A stretch of DNA of 62,648 nt, filler included, from Asterionella formosa (Eukaryota): NCBI GenBank assembly GCA_002256025.1. It is 13 parts of 13 records of this genome, joined end to end, with 100 filler letters (N's around TTAATTAATTAA, not from the genome) between each part and the next. Parts side by side here need not be neighbours in the genome. Positions count along the whole stretch, not along the records: positions 57,938 to 62,648 come from NKIB01013402.1; 12 more parts are not named here. The stretch is one strand, 5' to 3'. Numbering within the stretch: position 1 is the first letter of the stretch; each line of letters begins with the position of its first letter. Below the pieces are notes generated by a model. That model was not told the DNA's origin. It made no database searches and worked only from the letters and a program-made list of their open reading frames with translations. Both the position numbers and the translations under genes were made by a program. Shown one piece after another: positions 2,311-62,648 of this stretch.

Positions 2311-3234
2311 TATGATTTATTTTTCTGATCAGAATGCGCAGCCCTAGCTAAGGTAATACAGTCTTCAAATATTTGTTAAACAGAAATGATGAGAATATAG
2401 AACTAGTTTGGAAACCCAGAGGTGAACCTCAATTCGAGAAGCCAGAAAATCGTCAACAAGAAGTCCAAATTAGAAGCCTTTAGCCTCAAGTTCCAAACTC
2501 CTAATCTACTAATTAATCAAGTCAGTCGCAATAGTCAATAGACTCTTTCAAGGTGCAACCAGACTTTTGGTCACTGCCTCTCATGAAGTGTAAGCTCCGA
2601 AAATTCTCCAGCAAATAGCCCTTCCTATTCAAAAATTATTCCGAACCTAATGTTGTACATTTCGATTTACTTTTTTGGCGCGTTTTTTGTGGAATCGCGC
2701 CCCGATTGGAATGCTTGCTCTGAATTTATTTTTATATACATATATATATACATACCGGCATGCCTTTAGAGCATGCTGATGAGTGAATCGCCTTCATGTA
2801 CCAGCAGAAGCAGAAGGAGGTACCAGGTACCAGGTAGCAATAACAAATGAGTGGTAGACTAGACTAATACCGGTACCAGTACAGCAAAGCAATATTTATT
2901 TCATATATACTATTTTTTATCTATATTTTGCCAATACATTTCCCTAGTAGGTAGTTTTCTTGTGCTTTGACTCAACCGAATCGAGTCATTGCGCTAAATA
3001 TATAAAATTATGGATTTCACCACACACAAGTCAGTTGTCTACCAGCCATTACAATATCTCACACTCTTAGCAATGATATGATGTATGATTGAGCATATCC
3101 GAAACAGGGGATAGTGAATTACTAATATATAAGAAGAAAACAGCAATCGCCATGGTCATTGTGATAGCACTTGATTTATCATATGTAATGAAATTTAAAC
3201 AGTTTCCGGGTTTTCGGTCGACAAAAAAACCCAC

Positions 3235-3386
3235 CTGATTTCGTGACATGTGTGTGTTCTAAAGTCTATACAACTGTCTGCTAACAGTGCCTGCTGATTT
3301 CGTGATATGTGTGTGTTCTATAGTCTATACTACCCTGGTACTGTCTGCTAACAGTGCCTGGTACCGGTAGTCCTTTATCCTCAACA
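3235..3386 (-). repeat. Fragment of the Copia LTR 5' end, with a partial tandem duplication
   Basis: Matches 5519-5559 (ctgtctgctaacagt...tttatcctcaaca); about 59-nt unit duplicated at 3235-3360. Confidence 0.75.
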
Positions 3387-3388
3387 AA

Positions 3389-4200
3389 TGCTGAAGGTAA
3401 TAAATACACGACCGAGGGTGGAGACTGCCTGCGAGTATTCTTGTGTTCGAGGCTTGGGAGGCCCTCGCAGGTCAACCTTCTCGCAGCGCTGGCGAGTACA
3501 CAAGATTACGAGTTGGTAGACTCCTCCCGAGTAGGGTATTACCTAGGCAATTCACAAACTAGCTATCAGCATGCTTTTCGCCACTACATTGCCCTTTCTG
3601 TTAACATTGAAAACCTATTTTATATAGTATGTATGTTGGATGCAAACCAGCCAAAATTGCCCATCATATAAAACATATTTTGTAGATTTCATCTGTACAG
3701 TTTTTGGATTACTCAATCCTGCAATTGCCTATCATATAAAACATATTTTGTACATTTCATATGCTCCGTTTTTCGACTGCCAAACTACCTTTAATATTTT
3801 CAAAAGCCCCTAGATTTTATTGCCGAAATCGACTGCCATTTATTTAGGGGAATTTGATTACTGATATCTATAGCCCCTCAATTGACTGCCGTTTACTTAA
3901 GGAAAATCGACTGCCGAAATTGGACGAGAGTAGGAGGAGCTACATGAAGGCACGAAATGATGGTTTTCTTTAAAGTGTCGACGGTAATTCCACTGTTTAC
4001 ATCCCTGCTATCTTCCAGCATGCTCCGATGTATACAAAATCTGGTCATTGATGTCTCAAGTACTGACTCTTCATCAAATGGATCTGGCTGGTTGTTGGAT
4101 AATTCGATTTCTTATGGGATTCATATCGTTGCATCGTGCTTGCTTCGTCACAGTGGCGCCAAAATTTTGGTTCCCCTTTCTGTTGATTTCCGATAGCCTT
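3389..4200 (+). repeat. Family A interspersed repeat, divergent copy
   Basis: Starts TGCTGAAGGTAATA; 3540-3680 and 4040-4140 are homologous to 22350-22500 and 22790-22900. Confidence 0.7.
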
Positions 4201-4744: not shown

Positions 4745-4844
4745 NNNNNNNNNNNNNNNNNNNNNNNNNNNNNNNNNNNNNNNNNNNNTTAATTAATTAA
4801 NNNNNNNNNNNNNNNNNNNNNNNNNNNNNNNNNNNNNNNNNNNN
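4745..4844. other. Artificial contig linker (44N-TTAATTAATTAA-44N). Identical linkers at 9583-9682, 14421-14520, 19256-19355, 24088-24187, 28917-29016, 33746-33845, 38573-38672, 43398-43497, 48212-48311, 53026-53125, 57838-57937
   Basis: Twelve identical 100-nt spacers with stop codons in all six frames; the contigs between them fall in length from 4744 to 4711 nt. Confidence 0.99.
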
Positions 4845-6811
4845 ACTGTAATTATCATGTAAATAAGAAATGTTATCCAGGTGATGACTGAAATGAGACA
4901 TATTCAATGTCTTGTCATGTATATAATAATAGCATCACTATTGTGCCAGCATTCTGCTGGTTTTGTAGGCACAAAGCCAGTAGCTGACCAACATGAGGGT
5001 TCATGACAACTACAGCAAATTTTCTGGCCAGATTCATAAAAGTTGGCAGGTATGTGTTGAGATGTTCCAGATCTCCTTGATAGTACTTACACGACTAGTG
5101 TCCAGTACTACTAGTTCTCCACTAGCTAGTTTTCGACAACACTTTAATCTACTTTCAGATTAACCTCTTTCAATGTTGTGATTACTTCAGATTACTTTTT
5201 CTATCAATCTTACCAAATTCTATCAATCCTGCCAAATTACTTGGTCTTACCAAATTGATCTTGTTTCATGAATCTTACTTTCTTGGATTTGTTCTTCACC
5301 TCAATCCACTCTTTCTCATTGGTCGATTTAATACGATTTGCAATTCCAATTGTCTCAGTCTGATCATTTAATCTTGCATGTTGGACTTGCTCTGTAGGAA
5401 TTGCTATTCCATTTACGAATCCCGCATATATTTTCCTGAACTGACCTTCTTGTTCCATGGAATTCCTCACGATGACTGTCGGTCATGCAGACTGTGCAGT
5501 CATGCATTGCAGTGCTAGATATACTACTGTCTGCTTACAGTAGTCGTTTATCCTCAACATCCTCCCTCCAACATTCAAGATTCCCATTTTTTATCCTTGC
5601 TGCGTGCTTTGTGTGCAACTTCTCTGGACAGTTCTTGCTTAGTATGTCAGCTGAGTTCTCTTCCGATCGTACAAAATGTATCATCAAATATCCTTGATCT
5701 TCAAGTTCTCGGATGAAATGTGCCCTGACATCAATTTTTTTTGTCCGTGCACCCACATGTTGGTTCTTTACCAAATAGATAGCTCCTAAAATGTCTTCGT
5801 ATACACGTCCAACAATTTCTCTTCTTTTGGATATTGCATTACTTCTTCAAGTAGCATGGAAATGAACTTGTTCTCACATGCTCCTTTTGCCAAACTGGTA
5901 TACTCCGCTTCTGTGCTTGACAATGTAACTATATGTTGTGTCTTTGACTCCCAGTTCACCAATGTACCACAGATTGTATGTAGACCAGACAAAACGCTCT
6001 TCCTGTTATCAATATTCTTTGCATAGTCTGAGTCCACAAATGATATAGGCCTCAGCTCCTTTGGGATCCGATATGTCAACCCATCATAGTACTATCTTGT
6101 TTTAATGTGTCCAAACAGTCTTTCAAGTGCTTTCCAGTGCTCCTCGTCTGGGTTTGACAGATGTTGTGCCAACTCTCGTGCAGGGTTTGCCAAATCTGGT
6201 GCCAACTTTGTCATCAAATACATTAATTTTCCAACCATAGAACGATATTCCGTCATTTTTACTGGTTCTCCTTGATTCTTACTGAGAAACTTGTTTGGAT
6301 ATCCTGGTGTCTCTGTCTCCTTAACATTCTTCCCAATTATATTTTCGAATGATTCAACAATTTCATCCTCCAACTTTGTCATACTACCCACAATGTAGAT
6401 TTCACCATTTTTATCAGTTTTCCATTTATACCATACGCCAAGATGCTTCTTCAATCTTCCAAAATCCGAAATATTAAACCTCTTCTGTATTTCCAACTTG
6501 AACTTTTCAATTTTTGTCTTTCTTCCAATCAATAAAACGTCATCAACATGTACCACAGCCATCAGAATGACTTCATCCACTTTACTCACCCAGTAATATA
6601 AACATGGATCCACCAAGCTCTGAGTCATCATCATTTCCTTTCTTAAGTATTTGCACAGTGACTTCATAAAAAGTATTGGGACATCGACTCCACCATACAT
6701 GGCTCTTGTCAGTTTGATGCAAAACTCCTTCTTTTCTTCTTCTGTGATAAATCCAAGTTCCACCATCATGCCTTCTGGCCATTCTGCATACACTGGCCTA
6801 TCTGATTCAAG
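4845..6811 (-). mobile_element. Ty1/Copia element: RT-RNase H, PPT and 3' LTR
   Basis: VYAEWPEG, AMYG, VHVDD, FVDSDYA, LSSTEAEY, RTKKIDVRAHFIRE, ENSADILSKN; PPT GGAGGGAGGA (5560-5569) next to LTR start TGTTGAGG (5559); frameshifts. Confidence 0.93.
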
Positions 6812-14959: not shown

Positions 14960-15281
14960 GTTGCCGCTGGGTGGAAGAGGAAAAGGTGGCACGAGCGGCT
15001 TTCTTAATATACCCGGTACTGTATATGGCTGAGCAGAACAATTGTGAGTTAAAGCAGCAATGATGAAGGCATCATGAATGACAATCTTATTATTGCATAG
15101 GAACAAGGGAGCTTGCTTGTGCACCTGGTCCTGGTACCCTGGTACCTGTAAATGGTAGCAGGTAGGACACATGTTGCAGTAGTGTACCTGTAACCAGGTA
15201 CCGGGTACGGTATCTGGTAACCTGGTACGAAGGACTCCGTAGTAATTTCCATCGCTCATCTAGACTTACGATGTCCGTATG

Positions 15282-15400
15282 TGTTGAGGATAAACGACTA
15301 CCGGTACCTGGTACTGTTAGCAGACAGTACCGGTAGTATATCTAGTACTGTAATGACTGCACAGTCTGCGCGACCGACAGTCATGGTGAGGAATTCCATA
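15282..15400 (+). repeat. Copia LTR 5' fragment
   Basis: TGTTGAGGATAAACGAC...GAGGAATTCCAT is the reverse complement of 5457-5559 plus two micro-insertions. Confidence 0.85.
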
Positions 15401-15404
15401 CCGG

Positions 15405-16226
15405 GTAGCTTAAACCATGCATGGTTGTTTTTAGTACCACGTACGTATGTAGACTAGATGAATTCCAGTACCGGTAGAATATCCGTTAAGCATCATCACA
15501 TGCATGACCGGAGCAAAAACTTGCCGCCAACATCAGATGTATTGCTATCATCGCTCGTCCAAAGAAATTTGGACGATGCAAGTACATGAATCCCTCGAGA
15601 AGACAAGCAATCCAACAATCAACCGCATCCGATTAACAACAAACCGCCAATGGCGTCATCAATGAACTCATTTCGCTTCAGATTGGGCATGATGGACAAT
15701 GATCGGCATGGTGAAAGGTGAATTTCCGGAGTCAGTTTTCACGCGACAAACAAAAACGAGGTGACTACTGGATTTATTTTCATCAAATCTGTAGAGAATA
15801 TAAAATGGTTTCCATAGGTAGACGCCTTGCCAATTTCTGCAATCCCAAGGTTGGAAAACCGAGGGGCAATTGGCGTAAATTGTCTTGCCGAAATGCTATC
15901 ATTTGAAAAATACAAGACATATTTTAATGATGGGCAATATTGGACCTTTGGCAAGATTGCATGTGAAGCTAGGAAATATAAAAAATATGGATATGACAAG
16001 CTAAAAATGATATTTACGCTCAATGAGTGGGCAGTAGGTAAGCGAATGGCGCAATGATAGCTAGTCTGTGAATTGCCTCAACAATACCCTTCTCGATGGC
16101 TACTTGCTTTCTCGTATACATGTGCACTTGGCTGGGATGGCACTCGTAAGGTGACCTTCTTGCAGCGCTGGAACATATGTATACTCGCAGGCAAGAGACC
16201 ACCTTGGGCATGTCTTGCCTTCATCA
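15405..16226 (-). repeat. Family A interspersed repeat
   Basis: Colinear with 43535-44411 and 58300-59083; ends GCCTTCATCA. Confidence 0.9.
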
Positions 16227-16713
16227 ATCAAATCTAAGCTACTAATAAATAACTTGTTTCACATATTTTGCTTTAATTAACCATGTTATTGTTTAGTCGT
16301 CTTTGTAGTTGTTGTTTAGCTGCTGCGAAGCAAAGTGTCAAGTCTGCTGATAGCATTGTCGCCTTGAACTGTGAATATATAAATTTCATTAAAAAATGCG
16401 CTATCAGCTATTTCAATTTTCGTTGTCAATATACGAGGTATTACAACTGTTCTTTTACGATTGTATTTTATATATTGTGCTTAATATATATGTAGCCTAT
16501 AGCAAAGCGTTGTTCTCATTTTTAATGGAGATATTTGTTAATTTCTTCATTGTCAAGGCTGAGACGACTTGATGCACCATGCACACTCCAGTGGCTCACG
16601 ACGACTACACAGTTACTCCGTTGTGCTTTCCCAGTAAATATATTAGCTATTTATAGAAAAGACTAGAATAATCTAAGCTAAATAAATACCGGTATATACA
16701 AGCGCTTAAGAGT

Positions 16714-17076: not shown

Positions 17077-17941
17077 CCAGTACTAAAGAACGGCAGTGAC
17101 CCACTGAGTTCTCCTATTCGTTTTGATTAGTTCGACTAAACCTATTCCATGCCTTGCGAGAATCAAACTTCCAGGTCTTGTTAACGAAAAGAGTCAGCAG
17201 GTTGTGTCTGTCGATATTCTCATTGAAGGTCGAGATACTGAGATACAAACCCTTTTATGTGGACAAAATTTGCTGGTAATGGGTCACACCTGCCGTACTT
17301 AAATTTTTATCTATAATTGTATGTAATTTTATATACAATTACGATCTTGGATTACTCAGTTTGGTTTTCGCAAAATGATTTTTAAGAATTTTCGTATCCA
17401 GATGAATGTGATTACCGGTATATCACAATCACACACAAATGCATTCAGCCACATTAAATGCTTGAAACCATCAACACATACCGGTATGTACAGGTACCTG
17501 GTACACATTTTCTTTCCATTGTATGGGGGCTAATGGTATGTGGGTCGACCTTGGCATGCCCGTTTATGCATGCTCAAGTTATTTAAGCAATATCAGGGGA
17601 CAGGGATAGGTTTATGACAAGAATCATCCACCGAATAAATCGCATGCGATAAGTTTGTATATGGTTGCGTATATCATAAAACAATGAAACCTGAAAACAT
17701 GGGTAATCCGTGTTCTGGCAATATTTTCGTCGATTGCACTTTTCAACCAATACTTGAGGAGAAACAAACTGCTATAAACTTATATCTAATTGCATAGCCT
17801 TAAAGCGTACATGGTCAGGATTTGGGTCGAAGTTTTAAAATTAACATATTGGCATTTGGTGGGGTCAAACCGTGTTTTTCTCCTGTTCAGTGGGACACAG
17901 CGATTCCATTTTTTTAGTGGGTCACAGCAGTTTTTAACTGG
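17077..17941. mobile_element. 865-bp MITE with CCAG...CTGG termini and TA TSD (Tc1/mariner-type)
   Basis: TA|CCAGTACTAAAGAACGGCAGTGACCCACT ... AGTGGGTCACAGCAGTTTTTAACTGG|TA; homologous to 36977-37840. Confidence 0.85.
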
Positions 17942-19355
17942 TACCGGTACCCTGAGTAGCATGAGGTCAGCCACTGGCTTGCATACAGTGGTATTGTAAA
18001 AAAGTCATATCGGGTACCACTACTATATACTTCATTGTCCTTATGATGACGCTACCATATAAACATTTCAAATCCTAATTGATATAGAACCGTTCATTAT
18101 TGGTTATTTTCACCACTTTAGCCGGAAAAGGAGAACGATTTTGAGTTTGGAGAGTATAAAGCAACCTAAGCAAGACTTGCTTACTTTTGCTTAGGACTTT
18201 GCCTACTTTTGCTTCGGGCCAAACCTCTATCGCCCTAGTCATTGTCATTTTCTTTTTTCAGCCATTTGCCTCGTTTTCACGTTTCCGTGTTTAGACGAAA
18301 TTTTTTATTTATGTCACTAACAAGTCGTGATACTGTCGACTCAAAGAGAGAGTTGATGATGTTCTCTATTTAGTCGTTTGAGCGCCTGTCCTTCGTCACG
18401 CTGTCCACATTCAGCAAAATGACTGCAACTTGCAGGCACATACCGGTATGTGTACCGAGCTCTCGCCTGCCTTTCTGTACGCAAGCAATGATATTACTAC
18501 CGGTATTCTCATCGGAAAAAGACGTCATGTGCATGTCATAACAGGGTACCTGGTACCTGATACTTGTGAACTATTATATTTAGACATTTGAATTGTTACC
18601 AGTATACCTACAATAGGCTCATCGATTCTATACTTTTCAGTTGGATACTTCACTTTGAATTGAAATCCTTCTTTCGAATATGGAAAAATATGATAATCTT
18701 CCTATCATACCTTTGTTCAAGGATTACAATCCTCAAACCATCAAGTCTAGTCTACCAGGTACAGAGTACCAACATAAGGGAAAATCTACATTTATTACTT
18801 TAGTAGATATAGTGGGTCCTGACAACACAAAATTTGGAAAGACTAGGCCATGACCACACAGAAAAGAGTGAACTATGAGCTCGTCATGAGAATGCATGAT
18901 GACAATCTCTTATTACTAGGCACAATAGACTACGCCATAAAGGTACTGGTTGATTCTGAACCAACTGACTAATAAGAATTCAATTTGTCTGCCCTTACTT
19001 TAGCATAACTTGATAGGCTATATAGAAGCTTAGCAACTGTAATTCCCGGAATCTTTTACTTTTCCTCTTCTTAATCTTCCTCGGAATGTTTTACTCCCCG
19101 GAAACGATCCATCTGTATTTGCAAAGGAACAATTGTTTGAATCTGAGCCCTCCATGTAGACTGGACAAGCTCATAAATTTGGCAATCAAAAATGTTTTTA
19201 TTGTAAAAGGACTTCCACTCGGACGATTCATGATCAGCATATCGTTCTTCAGGACNNNNNNNNNNNNNNNNNNNNNNNNNNNNNNNNNNNNNNNNNNNNT
19301 TAATTAATTAANNNNNNNNNNNNNNNNNNNNNNNNNNNNNNNNNNNNNNNNNNNN

Positions 19356-22226: not shown

Positions 22227-23415
22227 TACCAAAGGCAATACACGCCCGAGGTGGTCTCATGCCTGCGAGTATACATGTCTTTGAGGCTGGGTGGCGCGAG
22301 TAGGTTGACCATACGAGTGGCGCCCCAAGAAGGCATGTAGCCACCGAGAAGGGTATTGCTGAGGCAATTCACAAACTAGCTATCGTCGCACCAGTCGCTT
22401 ACCTACGCCAGCCCACTCATCGAGTGTAAATGTCAATTTTAGCTCGCTATAGCCCATCATATAAAATATGTTTTGTATATTTCCTATCTTCACATCGAAA
22501 TTGGCAATGGGTCCGATATTGCCAATCATTAAAATGTATTTTGTTTATTTCCTGGTATCTTCGCATTTTGGCATTACAATTTGTAGCAATTGCCTTTCTG
22601 TTGTCCAGCCCTGGGATTGCCGAAATCGGCAAGCAAGGGGTCTACTTAAGGAAACCATTTTATATACTCTACAGAATTAAATAATTTATATCTAGAATTC
22701 ACCTCGTTTCTGTTTGTCTCCTGAAAAGTGGACTCCGGCAACTCACCTTTCACCATGCCGATCGTTGTCCATCATTACCGGTTTAAAGCGAAATCAGTTC
22801 AGTGATGACGCCAGTAGCGATTCATTGTCTAACGGATGCGGTTGGTTGTTGGATTGCTTGTCTTCTCGAGGGATTCATGTAGTGGCATCGTCCATATTTC
22901 GTTGGACAAGGGATGATAGCGATACATCTGATGTTGGTGGCAAGTTTTTGCTCCGGTCATGCATGTGATGATGCTTAATGGATAGTCTACCGGTGCCGGC
23001 AGTCATCTAGCCTACATGCGTACGTGGTACTGACAACCACCATGCATGGTTTAAGCTAAACTTTAATGCTTACTTTGAACATGTTATAATATTATCGCTG
23101 TAGACTTGGTATTATCTTTACAAGACCAGAATGTTAAATTGTATCATTCACATATTGATTGATTTTATGTACCAAATGCCCGATTTCGTCCTCACAATTA
23201 TGATTCTCACTCTATCCTGCCTGCCGTTGCTCAATTTGGGCTTGCAACAGGAACTTTCGACTTTCTTATGAGCCCATTTTCTGCTGTGTGTTACGCTTGT
23301 TAGAGCGGATTGGTGAGTACAACAGTGAAACACTGAATGTGATTGTAGATACAAAATTGTCGAAGTTCCGATTTGATTGCTTCCATGGTCCGTTTTGATC
23401 GCTTCCGTTGTCATT
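22227..23415 (+). repeat. Family A interspersed repeat, longest copy
   Basis: Reverse complement of 43498-44411 and 57938-59083. Confidence 0.9.
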
Positions 23416-24087: not shown

Positions 24088-24548
24088 NNNNNNNNNNNNN
24101 NNNNNNNNNNNNNNNNNNNNNNNNNNNNNNNTTAATTAATTAANNNNNNNNNNNNNNNNNNNNNNNNNNNNNNNNNNNNNNNNNNNNTTATGTACCCGAA
24201 TACGACAACGGTTGCGCTTCTCATACTTTTCCGCACCTCTCCACAACCCACCAATTGGATTAAAGCGTTCCTGACACCTGCCTTCGTTTTTGAATCCCTG
24301 TTCACTCACCTCACTGGTCAGCGAACACTGTGTTCTATTTTTGTAAGGCTATTAAATTTGCTATCGTCAGGTGGCCCCTATTTAATTCGGGACACGGAAC
24401 ATGCAACAGGTTGCACAACACGCATCGAACGGTGGAGAATTCTCGATTGCTACGCTCAGGGCCATCAGCATTTCTATTCTTAGCATCAACGCATAAAAAC
24501 AAAAACACAAAATGGTAATACAGCAAAAATTAAACAACAGCATCACTA

Positions 24549-25756
24549 TGCTGGACTCAGAAGAGCAAGAGAGGAGTGCACCAAAAGATAATCCGAGTCA
24601 ATCACACGATTATGCTCTCGAGGTCAATCAGAATACGCAACGAAAACTTGAAGCACTGTACGAGAATTCTGAATTTTTTGCCTTACATCCTGACTTCAAT
24701 ATTCTGCATTCCGATGATATTGAAATCGGAGAAAAACTTGGCGCAGGGGGATTCTGTGAGGTCCACCAAGTCACGGTGCTCAATAATAAATCACTAGCCA
24801 TAAAATACCTGAAACGAGAAGTCTTGGAGAACAAGGAATTGCACGAACGCGGTGCTGCTGACTTGGCGATGGAGGCGTGCTTCTTGGCAAAGCTGGATCA
24901 TAGGAACATTGTCAAGCTTTATGGAATATCCGAACCAGGAGAAGTCAATGCATTCCTTGTTATGGATCTCCTTTATGACAATCTTGACGATCGCATCAAG
25001 CAATGGCGTCAAGGGAAGGGTTTCTCTCAACATGCCCAAAAGCATGGAGGGTTTCCATTTTTTCAAAAAAAGGAAGACCCAAATGTAAAACGGCTATCAG
25101 AACTCAAAGTACGCCTGAAAGAAGCGCTGGCTATTGCGGAAGCGCTTGAGTATCTGCATAGCAAAAAAATTATACATCGAGACATAAAGCCTGACAACGT
25201 TGCTTTTGACGCTGATGGAACTGCGAAGTTGATAGATTTTGGTCTTGCCAAGGAGCTCAAAGATTCAGAGAAAATGGTCAATGGCAAGTATCGTTTGACT
25301 GGTAATACTGGAGTATGGCGATACATGGCTCCAGAAATCGCCAAGGAGTGGGCTTACGACATGTCAGTCGATACGTACTCGTTTGGAATTCTACTGTGGG
25401 AGATCTGTTCTATGGAACGCCCATTTTCGGCATACACTCACCAGGAGCATACAAAGATGGTTGTAAATGGTGAAGATCGTCTTGAGATTGAAACTTGGTG
25501 GCCTATTGAGCTGCAATGGCTCCTAAAGAAGTGCTGGAGTTTCTTTCCAAGTGGTCGACCCACATTTGAAGATATTCGAGAGACTTTGGAGGAGGTCATC
25601 GAAGATAGCCATGCTGACAGTCAAGATCAGCATGTGCATCGTGTTGGATTTGCATCCCTGGGAGGAATTGGCGGTACATGGCGAAAAAGCCAGAATAATG
25701 GCGAATCTCGCTTTCCTGATCCACGACAGGTCCAGTCAACCAGGTCACATCGTTAA
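24549..25756 (+). CDS. Ser/Thr protein kinase (TKL-like), intronless
   Basis: LGAGGFCEV, AIK, HRDIKPDN, DFGLAK, YMAPE, DTYSFG, RPTF; the ORF could start at 24512 or 24549. Confidence 0.95.
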
Positions 25757-30163: not shown

Positions 30164-32124
30164 CTTGTTTCAAAGGCAGCCGATGCTGGCCAATTATTCA
30201 CAGAACCATTCATTTGATATCGTTTTCTATTGGCTCTTTGTCCTGCCTTTCACGCCTTTATCCAACCCTACCTCTTTCACCAGAAGGACATCACCACCAT
30301 GACCCTGGTGGTCACCCTGACCGCTTCTGCCAAGACATACACGGACACCTCTGAGTTTGACTCCTCCAAGATGGCTCACACAGGTCACCGTACTGCTACT
30401 CCTTCCTCCTCTGATTCCTCAACCTCCCCAACCGCATGTATTGGGACCCCTTACTTCAATACCTCCCAGGCCAGGGTTATGCAGCAATTCAAATGCCCCA
30501 TTGATCGCTGCAATCATCATGACCTTGCTGCATGTAGTCTGGTAGCCTCCCGCTTCTCCATTGTTCCCAAACCTCTCTCCTCCTCTGGTGGTCGCCTTTT
30601 GAAACAGGGCGACAGCAAGAACGCCTTTCGCCATCCTGTTCTACCCCCTGACGAGGTGGTTGTGATTAAACCCCCTCATGGTTGCCCCATTGTTTCCAAG
30701 CGTGGTAACCTACTGGCGCCTCCATAAAACTCCTCTCTATGCTCTCCGTCGGAGCCCTCACCATTGGTTCACCTGTCCCTGGGCTTATCCCAGTGCCCTC
30801 ATGAACCCTGCATTTTCTTTGGTTCTCCTATGCCTAGTTCCCCTCCCCTTTATGTGGGCATATATGTGGACGACTTTACCTACTTCTCTGTTAGTGATGA
30901 GGTTGAGCAGTGCTGGTTTGAGGCCGCTGTGGCGGCTCATCTCCGGGTTGACTTCATGGGTCCCATCTCATGGTTCCTTGGTATCTACTTTATCGCCCCC
31001 ACTGGTCACCTCAGTGCATGTTCATTTATCCCAGGAGGCTTACCTTCGCAATCTCCTTGACCGGTTTGATATGGTGGATTGTCGCCATGCCCTTACCACT
31101 TATCACTCTGTCCTGGTCTATGACCGCATTGTGCCTGATGGAGCTGAACTTTCTCCCAAAGCTCGCGCGGCCAATGTTATACAACACCAGTCACTCATTG
31201 GGGCTCTCAATTGGCTGGCTGTCAGCACACATCCTGATGTCTCTGTTGCCCTCACTCTCCTGACTCAGCACAACTCCTATGCCACCCCCGCTCACCTTTT
31301 AGGTGCCAAGTATGTGTTACGATACCTGGCTGGCTCTGCCGATCATGGCATCGCCTTTACCTCGCAATTTGCTTCCTCATACCTCTCCACCACCTTTGGC
31401 TGGCCCAAGGACACTCCCACTCTCATCACTTACACCGATGCCAACTCGGGCCCCCAAGATGCTTCCAAACCCAACCCCATCGACATCATCTCTCTTGCCA
31501 AGTGTTGCTCCCTTCTTGGTTCCATCAGTACATGTACAGGTGGCCCCATCGCCTGGGATGTCATTTGTGAACCTCACGTGAGCCGCTGTACTTGCAAATC
31601 TGAAATCAAATCTGCGGATGAGGGCACCAAGGTTACCCAAGAATTCATCCGCCATATCCTTAGTGACCTTCACATGCCTGTTGTCACTCTCCCCACCCCT
31701 CTTTGGAATGAAAACAGAGGTGCTGTGGACTGGTCCCAAAACTGTGCTAACAAAAAGATGTGGCATATTAATTTCCGCAACATGGCTGTGCGCGACACTC
31801 ACCGTTTTTCCGAAATCTTTGTCACCCACCTCCCAGAGGATACCAATGTTGCTTGATCTGTTCACCAAAGAACATAAAGATGATGCCCATTTTCTCCACA
31901 TCCGCAATATTATTGTCCCATCATCTCATGGGAATTTTCTCACTTGAGGGGGTTGTTGGTACCATGTACTGGTTACTCCATATATCCTACCAAGATTCCT
32001 GTAAGTGCTTAATTCCCATGAGTACTGGTCCCTCTACAGCTAGTTAAATACTACTTTAGAATCTCAGTTCCTTGTTAATGTAGCTGCCACTGGCAGCTGT
32101 TGCAAGCATTTCTCCCTCTCAACA
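30164..32124 (+). mobile_element. Degenerate Copia RT-RNase H with PPT and a short 3' LTR (31954-32124)
   Basis: LKQGD.KNAF, LYALRRSP.HWF, IYVDDF, LSQEAY, YTDANSGPQDAS; PPT GAGGGGG; LTR TGTTG...CAACA. Confidence 0.9.
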
Positions 32125-37840: not shown

Positions 37841-38672
37841 CACCGGTAGTCACCTGGTACCTACACATCAATAGTCCCAACAACATCCTACATAGCATAT
37901 CGACGAAGGCTTCTTTCAATATGGATATGCCGGTACCAGGTATACCACAAGAATTGTAATGGTAAGCAATACTGACGTGGTTGCATCGCTTTCTTCCCGC
38001 ATATTCTTGGCGGTTCTCGCGAATACAATGATCGTGAAGAATTAATTGCAGCGATTAAAAATATTCCATTTCGCAAGCGTACTACGTATCCTAAAAAAGC
38101 ATGTACCCGATGTATTTCAGCTAAGTATAGCGGTACCAGGTACAGACGTGTCACACTTTCTTTGATCATAGGTACCGGTAGATTACCGATATCCTGCAGG
38201 TACCTGGCACATTAGCTACCTGTGTATCGTATATTACTTACTACCGGTATTACCTGTGCGTATTTTTTTCAGTGGTCTATCATTTATGTATAGTAAGTTC
38301 CTGGTACCAGGTACCAGGTACCTGGTAGCTGGTACCAGGTAGTCTACCAGATTTTGATGGTCCTCGATGAGGAGGATGATTATGTACTGGTATGCATCTT
38401 AGCTTCCACCGACGCGCACACACACGCACCAGGGAGCAATCTACTGGTAGTATACGGAGTACGGAGTCTTCCTTTTCTTATTACCGGTTGCGGGAAGGTG
38501 ATCCGAATTGCGAAAGTAAGGTCAGCAAGCAAAGCAAGCAAGGACTTGTTCACCACAATATCATAATAACAANNNNNNNNNNNNNNNNNNNNNNNNNNNN
38601 NNNNNNNNNNNNNNNNTTAATTAATTAANNNNNNNNNNNNNNNNNNNNNNNNNNNNNNNNNNNNNNNNNNNN

Positions 38673-43497: not shown

Positions 43498-44411
43498 AGA
43501 GATAATATTATAACGTGTTCAAAGTAAGCGTTAAAGCATGCATGGTTGTTTTTAGTACCACGTACGTATGTAGACTAGATGACTGCCGGTACCGGTAGAA
43601 TATCCGTTAAGCATCATTACATACCGGTACATGACCGGAGCAAAAACTTGCCACCAACATCAGATGTATCGATATCATCTTTCGTCCGACGAAATATGGA
43701 CGATGCGACTACATGAATACCTCGAGAAGACAAGCAATCCAACAATCAACCGCATCCGTTAGGCAAAGAATCGCTACTGGCGTCATCGCGGAACTGATTT
43801 CGCTTCAAACCGGTCATGATGGACGACGATTGGCATGGCGAAAGGTGAATTGCCGGAGTCCACTTTTCAGGAGACGAACAAAAACGAGGTGAATTCTAGA
43901 TATAGATTATCAGAACCTGAATAGTATATAAAATGGTTTCCTTAAGTAGACCCCTTGCCGATTTCGGCAATCCCAGGGCTGGAAAACCGAGGGGCAATTG
44001 GTGTCTGTTGTCTTGCCAAAATGCGAACATATGAAATATACAAAATATATTTTAATGATGGGCAATATCGGACCTTTGGCAATTTTCGAGGTGAAGATAG
44101 GAAATATACAAAAAATATTTTATTTGATGGGCAATAGTAGGCTAAAATTGACATTTATGCTTAATTTGTGGGCAGTAGGTAAGCGAATGACGCGACGATA
44201 GCTAGAGCGGGAATTGCCTCAACAATACCCTTCTCGGCGGCTACTTGCCTTCTCGTATACATGTGTACTCGGGTGGGATGGCACTCGTAGGGTGACCTTC
44301 TCGCAGCGCCGGGGGCGCTTTTCGTACGGTCAACCTACTCGCGCCACCCAGCCTCGAACACATGTATACTCGCAGGCAAGAGACCACCTCGGGCGTGTAT
44401 TGCCTTCAGCA
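43498..44411 (-). repeat. Family A interspersed repeat
   Basis: Ends ACCACCTCGGGCGTGTATTGCCTTCAGCA, identical to the end at 59083. Confidence 0.92.
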
Positions 44412-52866: not shown

Positions 52867-53908
52867 TAGAAGTATTGAGCAGTGAACCTTGGAAGATTTT
52901 GGAACTTTTAAGCCCCCTGGTGCACCTGTGGTTATTTTTAATCAAGTGTAGGTATGTACTGCAACGTCAGGGAAAGTACAGGTGGTAGATTTTTCTTGGA
53001 GGAGCCTCAAGAATTCTATAGACATNNNNNNNNNNNNNNNNNNNNNNNNNNNNNNNNNNNNNNNNNNNNTTAATTAATTAANNNNNNNNNNNNNNNNNNN
53101 NNNNNNNNNNNNNNNNNNNNNNNNNAAAATAAAAAGGGCGGGGCAGTATTTGCTCCAGCTTGGCTTTGGGCAGCATTCTTCTTCTAACCTCCGCCTGACA
53201 ACAACAGCACTGCCATTTCACCAGCTATTTCAGTAGCAATATACCTAAGCAAAAAGAAATCATCGTTTAATGTATCTGAGGAAAACAGGAGAGAATATTA
53301 AATTGAGTAAGTGTTGCTTTGCTAGAAATTTCAAGTCTTTCACCACATCGTCAACATCGCCTGCATGCTTGCTTCTTGCCATTAATTTACTTCTATGTCA
53401 ATGTACTATTCACTCCATCGCATTTTCTGCTCACAGCTGAATGATATCAAGATAGAAAAGTAGTTTGTTAGTGCATACAGAGAAAGGCAAAGAAATAAAC
53501 AATACGAACATACCAAGAAAAGCGCTGACAATTAAGGTTTGAAAACGACACCCATTCTTGGTTGAATCGTGAATTTTCTTGCACATGAGACTATAGATTG
53601 GAAAGGAGGTTGAGCTGAGCGAGAGAAGGAGAATCTCAGAAAGAAGAAAAATCACATCAAACTTACCATGAAGAGGCCATCATAGTCATTGTGAGTTTTC
53701 GTTTCAGCATGATTTTACAATTATGTGGTGCAAGATTGACAATAATAACATATTTGTAATAAATTAATATGGGTGCGGTCAATTGTGCTCATTTCATGAT
53801 ACAATGTACCAGATTATCGGTACCTGGTACCCTGGTGGTACCAGGTACTGTAAAATGAACCCACTAAAATCCTGGCATGTTCTGCAGTGTTGTACGAATA
53901 TGCAATAA

Positions 53909-57937: not shown

Positions 57938-59083
57938 AACGATGGAAGCAATAAAAACGGACCATGGAAGCAGCCAAGAACCAAATCGGAAATTCGACAA
58001 ATAGTATCTACATTCCACATTCAGTGTTTCACTGTTGTTGTACTCACCGATCTGCCTGCTCTAACTACCGGTAGCATAACAAGCAGCAGACGATGTTATC
58101 AAACGAAAGTCGAAAGGTCCCAATTGCAAGCCCGAATTGAGTAACGGCAGGCAGTATAGAGTGAGAAGTATAATTGAGAGGACGAAATCGGGTATACGTA
58201 AAATCAATGAATATGTGAACGATTTGATGCTGGTCTTGTAAAGATAAAACCGAGTCAACAGCATAAATGTTATAACGTGTTCAAAAGTAAGTGCTAAAGT
58301 TTAGCTTAAACCACGCATGGTTGTTTTGAGTACCACGTACATAGGCTAGATGACTAGAATATCCGTTAAGCACATAAATGACTGGAGCAAAAACTTGCCA
58401 CCAACATCAGATATACCAGTACGCAATGCCCAAGATCATCGTTTGTCCAACGTTATAGATGAAGTGACTACCGGTACATGAATCCCATGAGAATACTAGC
58501 AATCCAACAACCAACCGCATCCATTTGGCAACGAATCACTACTGGCATTGTCAATGAACTCATTTTGCTTCAGACTGGGCATGATGGACACTGGCAACGA
58601 GCAAGAACGAGGTGAATACTAGATATCTTTTAAATAAATCTGTTGAGAATATAAAATGGTTTCCTTAAGTACCGGGTAGACCCCTTGCCGATTTCGGCAA
58701 TGCCAGGGCGGGAAAACTGAGGGGCAATTGGCGTAAATTGTCTTCCCGAAATGCTAACATAGGAAATAGACAAAATGTATTTTGATCATGGGCAATATTG
58801 GACCTTCGGCAATTTGATGTGATGGGCAATAGTAAGCTGAAATTGACATTTATGCTTTATTTGCGGGCAGTAGGCAGCGAATGAAGCGACGATAGCTAGT
58901 TTGTGAATTGCCGCAACAATACCCTTCGCGGCCGCTACCGGTACTTGGCTTCTCGTATTACATGTGTACTCGGCTGGGATGTCACTCGTATATAGGGTGA
59001 CCGTCTCGCAGCGCCGGTACCAGGTACCAGGTACCTGGTACTCGCAGGCAAGAAACCACCTCGGGCGTGTATTGCCTTCAGCA
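57938..59083 (-). repeat. Family A interspersed repeat with many micro-insertions
   Basis: Colinear with the reverse complement of 22227-23415. Confidence 0.92.
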
Positions 59084-59225
59084 AGAGAGGTAACCAAATA
59101 TACACAAGAACCTCCCTCTGAGGATTTTGGGGGTCAAATCGTGAAGAGTTCGCCGTCAACCAACCCATTCTCCTACTTCGTTCTTCGTTTGTCGTGTAAA
59201 TACGAGACTTTTTTTGATTTTCAAA

Positions 59226-59963
59226 ATGGTTCCATCACTAATCATGACCTGCAGCAGCAGCAAGGAGCCCGTTGAATTTAAAGGCTTCGCAATTGTCGAT
59301 TCAGTTGAGTTTCAACACAAAGGTTTCATCGATGCCATCAATGCAAGGACTTTGCTTCAGACTACTAGCGAAAATGCCGCTAACAATTTAAAAAGTAGCA
59401 TTGGTAAGGAAACGAACAACACGAACAATGGAGAGGAGACATCGGCCTTTCATGGGCAAACCGGAAATCGTTTGATATCTTGCTACTTGTCAAGGTTGAG
59501 ACCTATGATCACCGAGCCTGTCGGAAATCTCATATGCACAGGTATTTCTCCTGGGCATCGATGTAACGAATCAATCATGGGTGCTAATTGTAAGCAGGAG
59601 ACTTTGCCTACTATTTCTAATTCCCTGGAAGCTGCCGAGGCGCCGCATTTGCCGACCGATATGGGTGCTGTCGATCGGACTTCACCAGTATTAGTGGTGA
59701 GAGAATCACCTGGAAAAGCACGAACAATGCTATCATCGGCTGGAAGGGGAAGATATGCACGCTTCAAAGCTGTTATCGAAGCTGAAAGCCTGGATGTGAG
59801 AGAAGTGATAGAACTGGCGAAAAGTATTGACGAGAACGGATTGCGTCCGATCATAAACGAATGGAGATGGCAGAAACAACAAACGAATAAGCTGCAACTG
59901 CAACCATCAAGTAAAGAAAACTCAAGAAAGAAATTATTGTCGTCATGCCATTGTGGGATTTGA
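59226..59963 (+). CDS. Hypothetical protein, about 245 aa
   Basis: Uninterrupted CpG-retaining ORF; no family recognised. Confidence 0.55.
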   Translation: MVPSLIMTCSSSKEPVEFKGFAIVDSVEFQHKGFIDAINARTLLQTTSENAANNLKSSIGKETNNTNNGEETSAFHGQTGNRLISCYLSRLRPMITEPVGNLICTGISPGHRCNESIMGANCKQETLPTISNSLEAAEAPHLPTDMGAVDRTSPVLVVRESPGKARTMLSSAGRGRYARFKAVIEAESLDVREVIELAKSIDENGLRPIINEWRWQKQQTNKLQLQPSSKENSRKKLLSSCHCGI

Positions 59964-60129
59964 ATCCAAAGAGTTTGAAGCTGGACTAGGTCATCGATAC
60001 CCAAGGTTGAAAGCCAAAACTCTCAGCGATTCGGTAGACTAAAATACATCGATCCATCATGCACCTTTCTATACTTCAACAATCCAGCTTGCATTACTGA
60101 GAAACAATATTTGTGCCTCGAAAAGATGA

Positions 60130-60790
60130 ATAGAACGACAATGACCAATTTAAAATTGACATCAACTGCATTGACAAAAACAAGCCAATATTTAAATTTG
60201 ATTGTATGGACAATCGGCTAAACCTTCCAGGATTCCTGATACGCTGACGATAAATCGTTTTTGATCTTGTTGCCATTCGTCGACACTGATTCTCCGTCGG
60301 CACAACAAATTATGTGAAGAAAGAAATCATGAGACTGGGACACCAGAGGTCTGGTCACTATCTACCTTCATACCGATTTCCATTCCATGGGTTCCTGGAA
60401 TTTCGCTGTCAAAGCCAATTGTATTAGAAATGACCTGAGTTTCCGTCACAGAGGAAACTGAAGGCGGAAATGATAAGGAAGTGCCTCAATTGAAGGGACC
60501 TGCAGAAATGAAGATCTACAACTAACAAGCAATGGTCATGGTGTGCTAAACTATTCTTTGATTGGAGTTCACGAGCCTGACGAAGTCATATGATTTTCAA
60601 ACCAGAGAAAGAATATCTCTCGGGGGCCATTCAACAAGGGGTTTGCAAGACTTGGTAGTCAAAGGGTTATTTTCAAGAGCGCTGTTGTAAGCAGTTCATC
60701 CATGAATGACTCTTCCGCAAAGGTGAATATGATCAGGAACAATTGGTGACAGCTGCGCACTCTCCTCAAGAAAAGGATTAGTTTTCACAA
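60130..60790 (-). pseudogene. Tandem pseudogene copy of the Mpv17/PMP22 gene
   Basis: Colinear with 60850-61500 including the intron; TGG>TAG at about 60218-60220 plus indels. Confidence 0.85.
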
Positions 60791-60816
60791 TCTTCTCTGC
60801 CATAAAAGTTACCAAT

Positions 60817-61555
60817 TCACTTGGTACCAATAACAGAAAGAACCATGTTAAATACGATCTGGACAGCATTGACAAAAACAAGACGATGCTTAGTGGAGAT
60901 GAATCTGAAGTTGACTGTATGGACGATCGGCCAGACCTTCCAGGATTCCTGACACGCCGACAATAAATCGTTTTTGATCTTATTTCCGATCGTGAACACT
61001 GAATCTCCGTTGGCCAAACCCAAATATGTAAAGAAAGCAATCATGAAAATGGGACACCAAAGGATTTGGTCAATAGCAACTTTAATGGCAATGTCCTTTC
61101 CATCGGTTCCTGGAATTTTGCCGTCGAGCCAATCGTAGAAAAAATGACCGGAAGGTCCGTCATAGAGGAAACCAAATGCGGAAAGGACAAGAAAGCGCTT
61201 CACGTTGAAGGGACCAGCAGAAATGAAGATCTTCAAGTAACAAGCAATGATCATGGTGTGTTAAAATTTCTTCGATTGTAGTTCACGAAACGACGAAGCC
61301 ATATAGTTCGCATACCTGAGCGAGAATATCTCCGATTGCCCATCCAACAAGGGATGTGCAAGACTTTGTAGTCAAAGGGTTCTTGTCAAGAGCGCTGTTA
61401 TAAGCAGTCCATCCAGGAACGGCTCTTGCGCAACGATGGGTAGGATCAGGAACACCTGGTGAAATCTCTGCAAATTCCTTACGAAAACGACTGGTATTGA
61501 CAGCTTTTTGAGCCGCATGCGCTTGTTTATATTCGCAGACGGAGCTATCTGACAT
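60817..61555 (-). CDS. Mpv17/PMP22 (SYM1-like) membrane protein; intron 61231-61315
   Basis: YNSALDKNPLTTKSCTS..GDILAQ|IF..GPSGHFFYDWLD..KVAIDQILWCP..WKVWP.VH.VNF; start codon uncertain. Confidence 0.9.
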
Positions 61556-62648
61556 GAGAATGTAAACATCAAAATCCTCGGTGTGCTTACAATGTTTTCC
61601 TTTTGCCCTGTTCTCCTTTCCTGCTTCCCTGAAACCATAAATAATTAGTCCATGTGGAAAGGCTTCGTTGTGATGGAAGGCAAATTATTAATCAAATCAG
61701 AATGTTTCTGGTATTCTCTTACTTGCCTTTCATGTTGTATTTCTAGCTGCTCCGTGCCATCTCTGATCCAAAATAACAAGTGAAACACAAGGCGATGAAG
61801 GATGATAAGTAAATCATTATTCAGAATATAAACGACGGTAATTGTCGGAAAAGTAGCAAAAGCGATTGCAAACATACCCAAAGTACCCAATCTCTGCGTC
61901 GTCGCCCCTTGTTGCCTTCTGATTTGGATGGTGCTCTTTTGTCATAACTTATGGATCTGAAAATGCCAGTCGCAATGCACAACGAGTTAGAAGGAATGAA
62001 TATTGGGGAGGAAATGTATTCCTCATTGATGGAAGCCAAATGAACGAAGAAACACGGATTGAACACTGACATGATTACGCGCTTCTTTATGCTTCTTCCG
62101 AGCGAAGGGTATCTCCTTGAATGATAGTGGTAACAAAATGGGGTTTGGATCGACGAATGCAAACAAGAGAATCAGAAGTAGAACGTCGCTTTCATTGATA
62201 GGGAAGAAAACAAAAATGGAGTAGGTCAAAAATGCGAACAGAATGAACGACGAAATGTATTGGCACAAATGAATTGGAAAGTGTGAAACGGGAGAAGTGT
62301 GGTCACCCTTGATGTGTGCATATTGCTTTCAAGAATTACATTCCCACCCTGCTTGTTGTGACTATACCCTTATCGTCACCTGAAGAAATCGATATTATCA
62401 TATGACATACCGGTATGACGCTTTTTATTTTTCTGTTTATACATACAAAAATAGTGGTACTTGAAAATTAGCATTTGCAAGGACAAAGTTCGTAGTTAAC
62501 GCCAACGTTATGTTTGTTAGAGATTCCCGTAGATCCAAGACTGAATTAAAAATAGTACGGCTGTACCTGATATGCATAAAGCATAGCACCGGTTAAGACC
62601 GGTAAACTATCCTGAAAACTGGTTATTTATTACTCGGAGTACCAGCGC

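Follow-up and report, generated by a model that had tools for sequence, protein, structure and literature searches.

Short palindromic insertions of the TA-CC...GG-TA type at high density in non-coding DNA of the diatom Asterionella formosa

In a draft assembly of the diatom Asterionella formosa, copies of the same repeat differ by tiny palindromic stretches that stand behind a TA, which raises the question of how such units came into this DNA. The first-pass annotation had read them as insertions that duplicate a TA and had attributed them either to excision scars of elements with CC...GG ends or to a dedicated micro-insertion mechanism. We analysed the same stretch of DNA (the window), which comprises 62,648 nt and is made up of 13 contigs of ~4.7 kb each in descending order of size, with N44-TTAATTAATTAA-N44 linkers between them (4745-4844 and 11 further sites, approximately every 4.8 kb). 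Since these contigs are joined artificially, the "sister copies" of a repeat sit on unlinked contigs and are not genomic neighbours. The GC content of the whole window is 40% and 61,582 of its bases are not N.

Host genes recognised by Pfam in the window are those for a kinase, an LRR protein, HECT, GNAT, Mpv17, an aldehyde dehydrogenase and a methyltransferase, and reverse-transcriptase fragments are found in addition. The kinase ORF (24512-25756) is intronless and has named relatives in the diatoms Fistulifera, Cylindrotheca, Odontella and Mediolabrus, while another match is 98% identical. The reverse-transcriptase fragments (RVT_1, RVT_2/copia type) are located at 41-562, 6095-6811 and 30728-31057, and a telomere-like (TTAGGG)3 tract lies inside the middle of a contig (50941-50958).

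The units are palindromic inserts of 6-7 nt, TA-CCGG-TA and close variants of it, and occur about once per kb in non-coding DNA. In the 61,582 non-N bases TACCGGTA is present 28 times where 0.4-1.4 copies are expected, TACCAGGTA 13 times, TACCTGGTA 7 times, TACCGGGTA 4 times, TACCCGGTA once and TACCNNGGTA 6 times, and TACCNNNGGTA 0 times, which gives a total of 59 units. Sorted by the bases between CC and GG, 28 units have no central base (N0), 25 have one (N1, TACCNGGTA; A in 13, T in 7, G in 4 and C in 1), 6 have two (N2) and 0 have three (N3). The number of independent insertion events is somewhat below 59, as the unit at 15469 equals the one at 43590 by paralogy, and those at 3331 and 3362 equal those at 15328 and 15299.

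These numbers are far above what the composition of the DNA predicts. An earlier count by eye of 28 TACCGGTA against roughly one expected was reproduced by our recount: 100 first-order Markov simulations gave a mean of 0.37 and a maximum of 2, and 100 third-order simulations a mean of 1.21 and a maximum of 4. The same is true for TACCWGGTA, which was observed 20 times versus means of 0.21 (first-order) and 0.96 (third-order), and the k-mer enrichment of TACCN0-2GGTA that had been proposed as a check is thereby borne out with 59 units. Among 8-mers with at least 8 occurrences TACCGGTA is the most over-represented one. Moreover, TA stands on both sides at 28 of the 103 CCGG sites, where the next commonest flank pair reaches n=4, and at 20 of the 116 CCWGG sites.

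The enrichment is specific for the symmetric form. Other CG-containing TA palindromes used as controls, TACGCGTA, TAGGCCTA and TAGCGCTA, occur 0 times each in the window. One-sided forms are not enriched either, as TACCATA was found 5 times (4.3-8.4 expected), TATGGTA 4 times (4.3-6.7), TACCTA 13 times (10-12) and TAGGTA 16 times (10-11), and the asymmetric cores TACCGTA (1) and TACGGTA (2) show no enrichment in the window. Two one-base variants are in excess, TACCAGTA with 11 and TACTGGTA with 6 copies versus ~2 expected each, which is 3-5 times the third-order expectation, while all further one-base variants keep to their expectation. Deamination of CpG would leave just this pattern, which suggests that the units carry cytosine methylation. 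The excess of CpG-decayed forms also implies that units have been resident long enough for decay.

Filled and empty sites could be compared in two repeat families, A and B. The window holds four copies of family A, 69-84% identical by BLAST, which were aligned by MAFFT and pairwise: c58k (57938..59084, + strand), whose 5' side is cut by the contig start and which has diverged furthest among them, c43k (43498..44411, + strand), also cut by a contig start, c23k (22232..23406, - strand) and the 5'-truncated c15k (15406..16227, + strand). A scan of metagenomes with a conserved family A 20-mer returned 7 loci, namely 3 long copies (L003, L006 and L007), one 83-nt piece and 3 unrelated GC-rich contigs. 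The three long copies come from other projects and are 95-97% identical to c43k (97.1% for L003), which indicates that this subfamily of the repeat is young and widespread in freshwater samples.

At eight sites in the two families a unit is inserted cleanly at a pre-existing TA (58066, 58469, 58670, 58936, 43622, 43584, 15328 and 15299-15313). For each of them at least one other copy has a single TA, and all inserts consist of CC-N0-2-GG and one TA; the units are thus insertions that duplicate the TA. The copy c58k carries four private single units and one private array. The TACCGGTA unit at 58066..58073 adds 6 nt compared with c23k (AAC-AA-GC) and L007 (AAC-TA-GC). The TACCGGTA unit at 58469..58476 corresponds to an empty TA of the gacTAcatg type in the 5 other covering copies; MAFFT spreads it into mismatches, whereas the pairwise alignment shows a clean 6-nt gap. 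A 7-nt insertion, the TACCGGGTA unit at 58670..58678, is likewise matched by an empty TA (ttaagTAgacc) in 5 other covering copies, and where c58k has TACCGGTA at 58936..58943 the other copies are empty (ggcTActtg). The private array at 59018..59040, TACCAGG-TACCAGG-TACCTGG-TA, consists of three 7-nt units that share their TAs; as a ninth site it lies in a variable stretch and the contrast is not clean. Units are given here without strand.

In c43k two sites vary in a more complex manner. The double unit TGCCGG-TACCGG-TA at 43584..43597 differs in unit number between copies, with 0 units in c58k, 2 in c43k, c23k, c15k and L007 (the latter with one additional A) and 3 in L003 and L006. The TACCGGTA unit at 43622..43629 marks a three-state site, which is an empty TA/TG in L007, c23k, c15k and c58k, TA-CG-TA in L003 and L006 and TA-CCGG-TA in c43k. 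A search for three-state sites had been suggested with empty TA, full element and footprint in mind; three states do exist here, namely empty, CG and CCGG, and the full-element state was found at none of the compared sites.

Family B gives the same picture. Its copy on contig 4 carries TACCGG-TACCTGG-TA (15299-15313) and TACCGGTA (15328-15335) within 15299..15335, neither of which is present in the copy at 5457-5559. In the copy at 3326-3389 these same sites are occupied by units with other centres (CCCTGG; CCTGG), written as TACCCTGGTA and TGCCTGG-TACCGG-TA at 3331..3369. The centres at the shared sites differ as CCGG versus CCCTGG and as CCAGG versus CCTGG.

A comparison of filled and empty sites does not by itself give the direction of the change, and the units could be ancestral and have been lost from some copies by deletion through TA microhomology. 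The TA direct repeat would favour such a precise loss, and the units private to c58k have no polarity because this is the most diverged copy. However, the unit at 43622 is filled only within one 95-97% subfamily, of which L007 nevertheless has the empty site, as do all older lineages, so that by parsimony it was most probably gained by insertion. In addition, a third unit was gained at 43584 in L003 and L006, and the same core of 4-6 nt is found at unrelated loci including single-copy DNA, which means that it was inserted at each of them. We therefore consider loss of ancestral units very improbable, and the polarity at 43622 is that of insertion.

The units also figure among the indels between repeat copies. 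Over 860 nt, c43k and L003 are 97.1% identical, and the two indels that separate them are both in units. Among all pairwise alignments gaps of 6 nt (18), 7 nt (7) and 12 nt (7) prevail over those of 5 nt (5) and 8 nt (2), with the reservation that these counts are not independent, and roughly one in two distinct indel events of 6-7 and 12-13 nt between repeat copies is a unit. The first-pass annotation had named two findings that would speak against its reading, an indel spectrum lacking an excess of units and ancestral units lost by deletion; the data point the other way in both respects. The presence/absence indels it had listed between family A copies reappear in the MAFFT and pairwise alignments, its view of the units as insertions that duplicate TA agrees with the single TA at the empty side of all eight clean contrasts, and its coordinates are all exact, including 58066, 58469, 58936, 58670, 59018-59040, 43584-43597 and 43622.

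As the assembly is a draft of low contiguity with contigs of ~4.7 kb and artificial linkers, one might suspect remnants of linkers or adapters from the library. However, contigs from runs of other studies match the window with 0 differences (X5 record 14 at 18350-18730 and X1 record 2 at 14976-15362) and cover nine units, and the metagenome contigs L003 and L006 from other projects bear units in family A. The units are therefore no assembly artefacts but real sequence. Likewise, an artefact would hardly account for the CpG-decayed forms in excess or for the lack of units in Pfam-supported coding sequence (see below), and its probability is close to nil. For the stretch 57938-62648, half or more of the sampled words were found in 7 runs, which are labelled as algae or freshwater or are unlabelled. 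On contig 4, no unit polymorphism was detected in four runs among the 12 of 28 indels listed.

The units are unevenly distributed and cluster. Five contigs carry 17, 12, 8, 6 and 5 of them and each remaining contig 0-3, and successive unit starts are at most 10 nt apart in 6 of 58 cases and at most 100 nt apart in 26 of 58. Coding sequence is avoided, as 0 of the 59 units fall into Pfam-supported ORFs (6,111 nt) where 5.85 are expected (P = 0.003). Single-copy DNA also bears units (15010-15305 and 18498-18753), with units upstream of the aldehyde dehydrogenase gene. At the base that follows the TA of a unit, A is found in 3 of 74 isolated half-flanks versus 25% at generic TAs, and G is raised. 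Two junctions at which a repeat is truncated each bear a unit exactly at the junction; one is the TACCGGGTA unit at 15399..15407, where a family B copy meets the 5'-truncated c15k, and the other is the unit at 3331. Of 81 HSP boundaries, 7 are close to a unit versus 1.74 expected; we give this no weight, as it is partly circular since unit indels themselves split HSPs. As side observations, the retrotransposon-bearing contigs 2 and 7 have zero units, and two units ~1 kb apart (17479-17486 and 18441-18448) share the extended palindrome ACA-TACCGGTA-TGT with inverted symmetry. The empty site of this pair would be CATATG, which resembles the Tc1 target consensus CAYATATRTG.

Neighbouring units form arrays that mix unit lengths and centres, with 6 and 7 nt at 15299, 7 and 8 nt at 53821 and the centres A, A and T at 59018. 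The longest array, TACCAGG-TACCAGG-TACCTGG-TAGCTGG-TACCAGG-TA, lies at 38305..38341. Such tandem arrays might be taken as a sign that the units were seeded rarely, by whatever mechanism, and then multiplied by slippage of 6-7 nt and by co-amplification within high-copy repeats. The centre of contig 4 (15311-18470) is indeed a very high-copy repeat block with several families, family A and family B included, and in four runs it exceeds the single-copy flanks 100- to 1000-fold in summed word depth; its units thus multiply with the repeat, and the units shared by paralogy (15469 and 43590; 3331, 3362 and 15328, 15299) are further cases of copying. Slippage and repeat copying surely contribute. 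They are not the origin of the units, as slippage would have to duplicate an adjacent unit whereas single units were found at naive TAs without CC or GG, and the eight clean de novo sites lie beyond its reach. Furthermore, the mixed lengths and centres within arrays are not a product of copying, and units are present in the single-copy flanks 15010-15305 and 18498-18753. Slippage may still enlarge arrays, but as the main explanation secondary amplification appears rather improbable to us.

What remains to be explained is the source of the core. At 4 of the 6 clean single-unit sites no other copy of the core is present within 60 nt; in the lack of a local template CC/GG must come from outside the locus. 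For the same reason, and because the core recurs at unrelated loci, locally templated insertion by polymerase theta was rejected. A selected transcription-factor site was ruled out as origin since the clean indels sit in decaying repeats, and restriction-site fill-in and hairpin P-nucleotides were ruled out because the empty sites hold only TA. The core itself is constant and symmetric (CC...GG), as the tips of inverted repeats would be.

Our preferred explanation, which we hold tentatively and at slightly less than an even chance, is that the units were left as scars at the donor sites of a cut-and-paste element of the IS630/Tc1/mariner type that targets TA and has CC(W)...(W)GG tips. Integration of this element would duplicate the target TA, and each flank would keep TA and two or three bases of the tip after staggered excision cuts, so that joining of the flanks would yield TA-CC-GG-TA, TA-CC(A/T)GG-TA or TA-CCNNGG-TA. 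If both overhangs are kept CCWWGG would result, if one base is lost or overlapped CCWGG, and if both are lost CCGG; such trimming of CC(W) tips matches the 6 : 25 : 28 split of N2, N1 and N0 units and the A/T-rich centres. Repeated visits to TAs beside CC or GG would build mixed arrays, and joining the ends of two separate TA breaks would place units at truncation junctions. Where an ancestral site was occupied, separate excisions from it could give different centres, as at 43622 (empty, CG or CCGG) and in family B, local hopping would give clustering by contig, and CpG decay would later erode the scars. In this scheme a parent element with its transposase, the stagger size and the re-targeting are inferred.

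The search for such a parent in the window was negative. Pairs of TA-CC and GG-TA within contigs revealed no credible TIR beyond the unit arrays in the 61.6 kb, the sequence that follows TACC shows no recurrent extension in the window, and no indel of at least 13 nt bounded by TACC...GGTA occurs among the alignments of repeat copies. Elements with TA-flanked TIRs of any tip were not convincingly detected in the 61.6-kb window, an absence that holds for the window alone. Similarly, 0 of 70 ORFs of at least 100 aa encodes a DDE transposase, in a window that we estimate at <0.1% of a typical diatom genome. A scan of 596 Gb of genome contigs for TACCWGGTACCWGGTACC gave 103 loci, all of them prokaryotic, where by a rough estimate ~70 chance matches are expected, and is uninformative on the diatom; two of these loci, L085 and L086, show dense bacterial ORFs. 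The scan brought up GGTACCN heptamers that form arrays between genes, partly interspersed with 8-mers, on MAG contigs of Bacteroidota (L046:3001-3030, L086:512-545 and 2987-3020, L092:275-320), which surfaced only because the scan pattern demanded them. In the open literature on diatoms, mariner, footprints and palindromic indels we found no description of such units, and the bare motif led to cloning primers; subscription journals lay outside the coverage.

With regard to known transposons, the footprints of this superfamily are TA-CA-TG-TA for Tc1, TAC(A/T)GTA for Sleeping Beauty and 4 nt plus TA for Minos, and the terminal repeat of Mos1 starts with CCAGGT. Like the units, the footprints of IS630/Tc1/mariner elements (Sleeping Beauty, mariner, Stowaway/Osmar) consist of a duplicated TA around a few constant bases that would be the tips. 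The analogy to Tc1 drawn in the first-pass annotation is apt in this respect, that is in form only. According to the passages on excision in PMC7827188, the first nick of Tc1/mariner transposases lies three nt inside the element and leaves 3' overhangs on the flanks, so that the footprint after NHEJ consists of these overhangs beside the duplicated TA, and PMC4561436 likewise describes donor flanks that keep 3' overhangs after staggered cutting within the element and are sealed by NHEJ. For mariner elements in rice PMC4423477 gives ratios of insertions to excisions of 59:21 and 81:31, and among natural excisions in rice a perfect TSD pair in 8 of 94, with averages of 18 bp of flank deleted and 13 bp of filler added. 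As far as this account goes, natural excisions in rice are mostly messy and rarer than insertions (PMC4423477), whereas the diatom units are tidy and come with 0 elements in the window.

The diatom units further differ from Tc1/mariner footprints in that the window contains no parent or transposase, in their density of ~1/kb, in their near-perfect symmetry and in their mixed arrays and hot spots. Their behaviour is not that of ordinary footprints, since ~59 tidy symmetric scars stand against 0 elements in the window, scars are stacked on scars, and mixed arrays of 6, 7 and 8 nt would arise only if the same short stretch were struck again and again. Of the two origins that had been offered at the outset, scars of CC...GG-ended elements gain from an anatomy that fits Tc1/mariner repair, and lose by the lack of an element or transposase in the window, the atypical uniformity and the self-clustering.

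The other origin would be a micro-insertion that needs no element, in which a TA-specific nuclease (e.g., a domesticated transposase of the Tc1/mariner type) or a transient episome breaks TA; we rate it as a serious but unlikely alternative. The enzyme would then add the CC on each 3' side, or a non-resident molecule would provide the template for it, and units would beget units. In its full form, to which we give about one chance in four, TA (not TAA or TTA) would be broken and resealed with a fixed CC per side, leaving a palindrome of 8-10 bp about once per kb of non-coding DNA, with a preference for its own products, which would dominate the indels of young repeats and mark rearrangement junctions. 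Several of the observations described above would be accommodated well by such a process: the 61.6 kb without parent elements or transposases versus ~59 units, the extremely uniform and symmetric product that is unlike natural excision sites in rice, the hot spots (a number of units at 43584 that varies between 0, 2 and 3, the location of both c43k/L003 indels in units, 6 of 58 starts at most 10 nt apart) and the units at the two truncation junctions, 15399 and 3331. However, no candidate enzyme was identified in the window, and 61.6 kb of short, repeat-broken contigs are a poor sample for a low-copy element. Non-templated addition of C should moreover give asymmetric cores, and TACCGTA (1) and TACGGTA (2) are unenriched. 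We know of no TA-specific element-free micro-insertion mechanism, and a known class of transposons produces exactly this anatomy of scars.

Short inserts that lack an enzyme of their own are found in yeast mitochondria. As described in the parts of PMC4478555 on GC42 clusters, these resemble the units in being short, non-coding, palindromic and GC-rich in AT-richer DNA and in having no enzyme of their own, and also in the duplicated dinucleotide target (AG), the sporadic presence and absence and the merger of units. They differ in that GC42 clusters are 42 nt long, form a hairpin and are mitochondrial, whereas the diatom units have 4-6 nt plus TA, are nuclear and are too short to fold or to carry recognition sequences. 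Among short palindromic inserts that have no enzyme and duplicate a dinucleotide target, GC42 comes closest to the units. A different parallel is offered by the internal eliminated sequences of Paramecium, which are delimited by TA and removed by a domesticated transposase, precisely and with a single TA left, in a separate somatic nucleus. This TA-bounded elimination may serve as a model for a host enzyme that clears all copies of an element; the diatom data give no sign of programmed elimination, and to our knowledge diatoms have no nuclear dualism of the ciliate type.

If the units are scars, they would reflect an extraordinary cut-and-paste traffic, with ~1 scar per kb and no element in view. 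Excision of DNA transposons would then be among the main causes of small indels, of palindromes and of rearrangement junctions in the regulatory DNA of this organism, and the past activity of transposons in algae could be measured by a simple motif. Should there be no parent element, the units would represent a categorically new mutational process, recognisable by its defined sequence signature and open to direct tests in a culturable organism. Either way, the units create palindromes of the KpnI/AgeI type and CpGs near genes, and can confound population genetics based on indels in this group.
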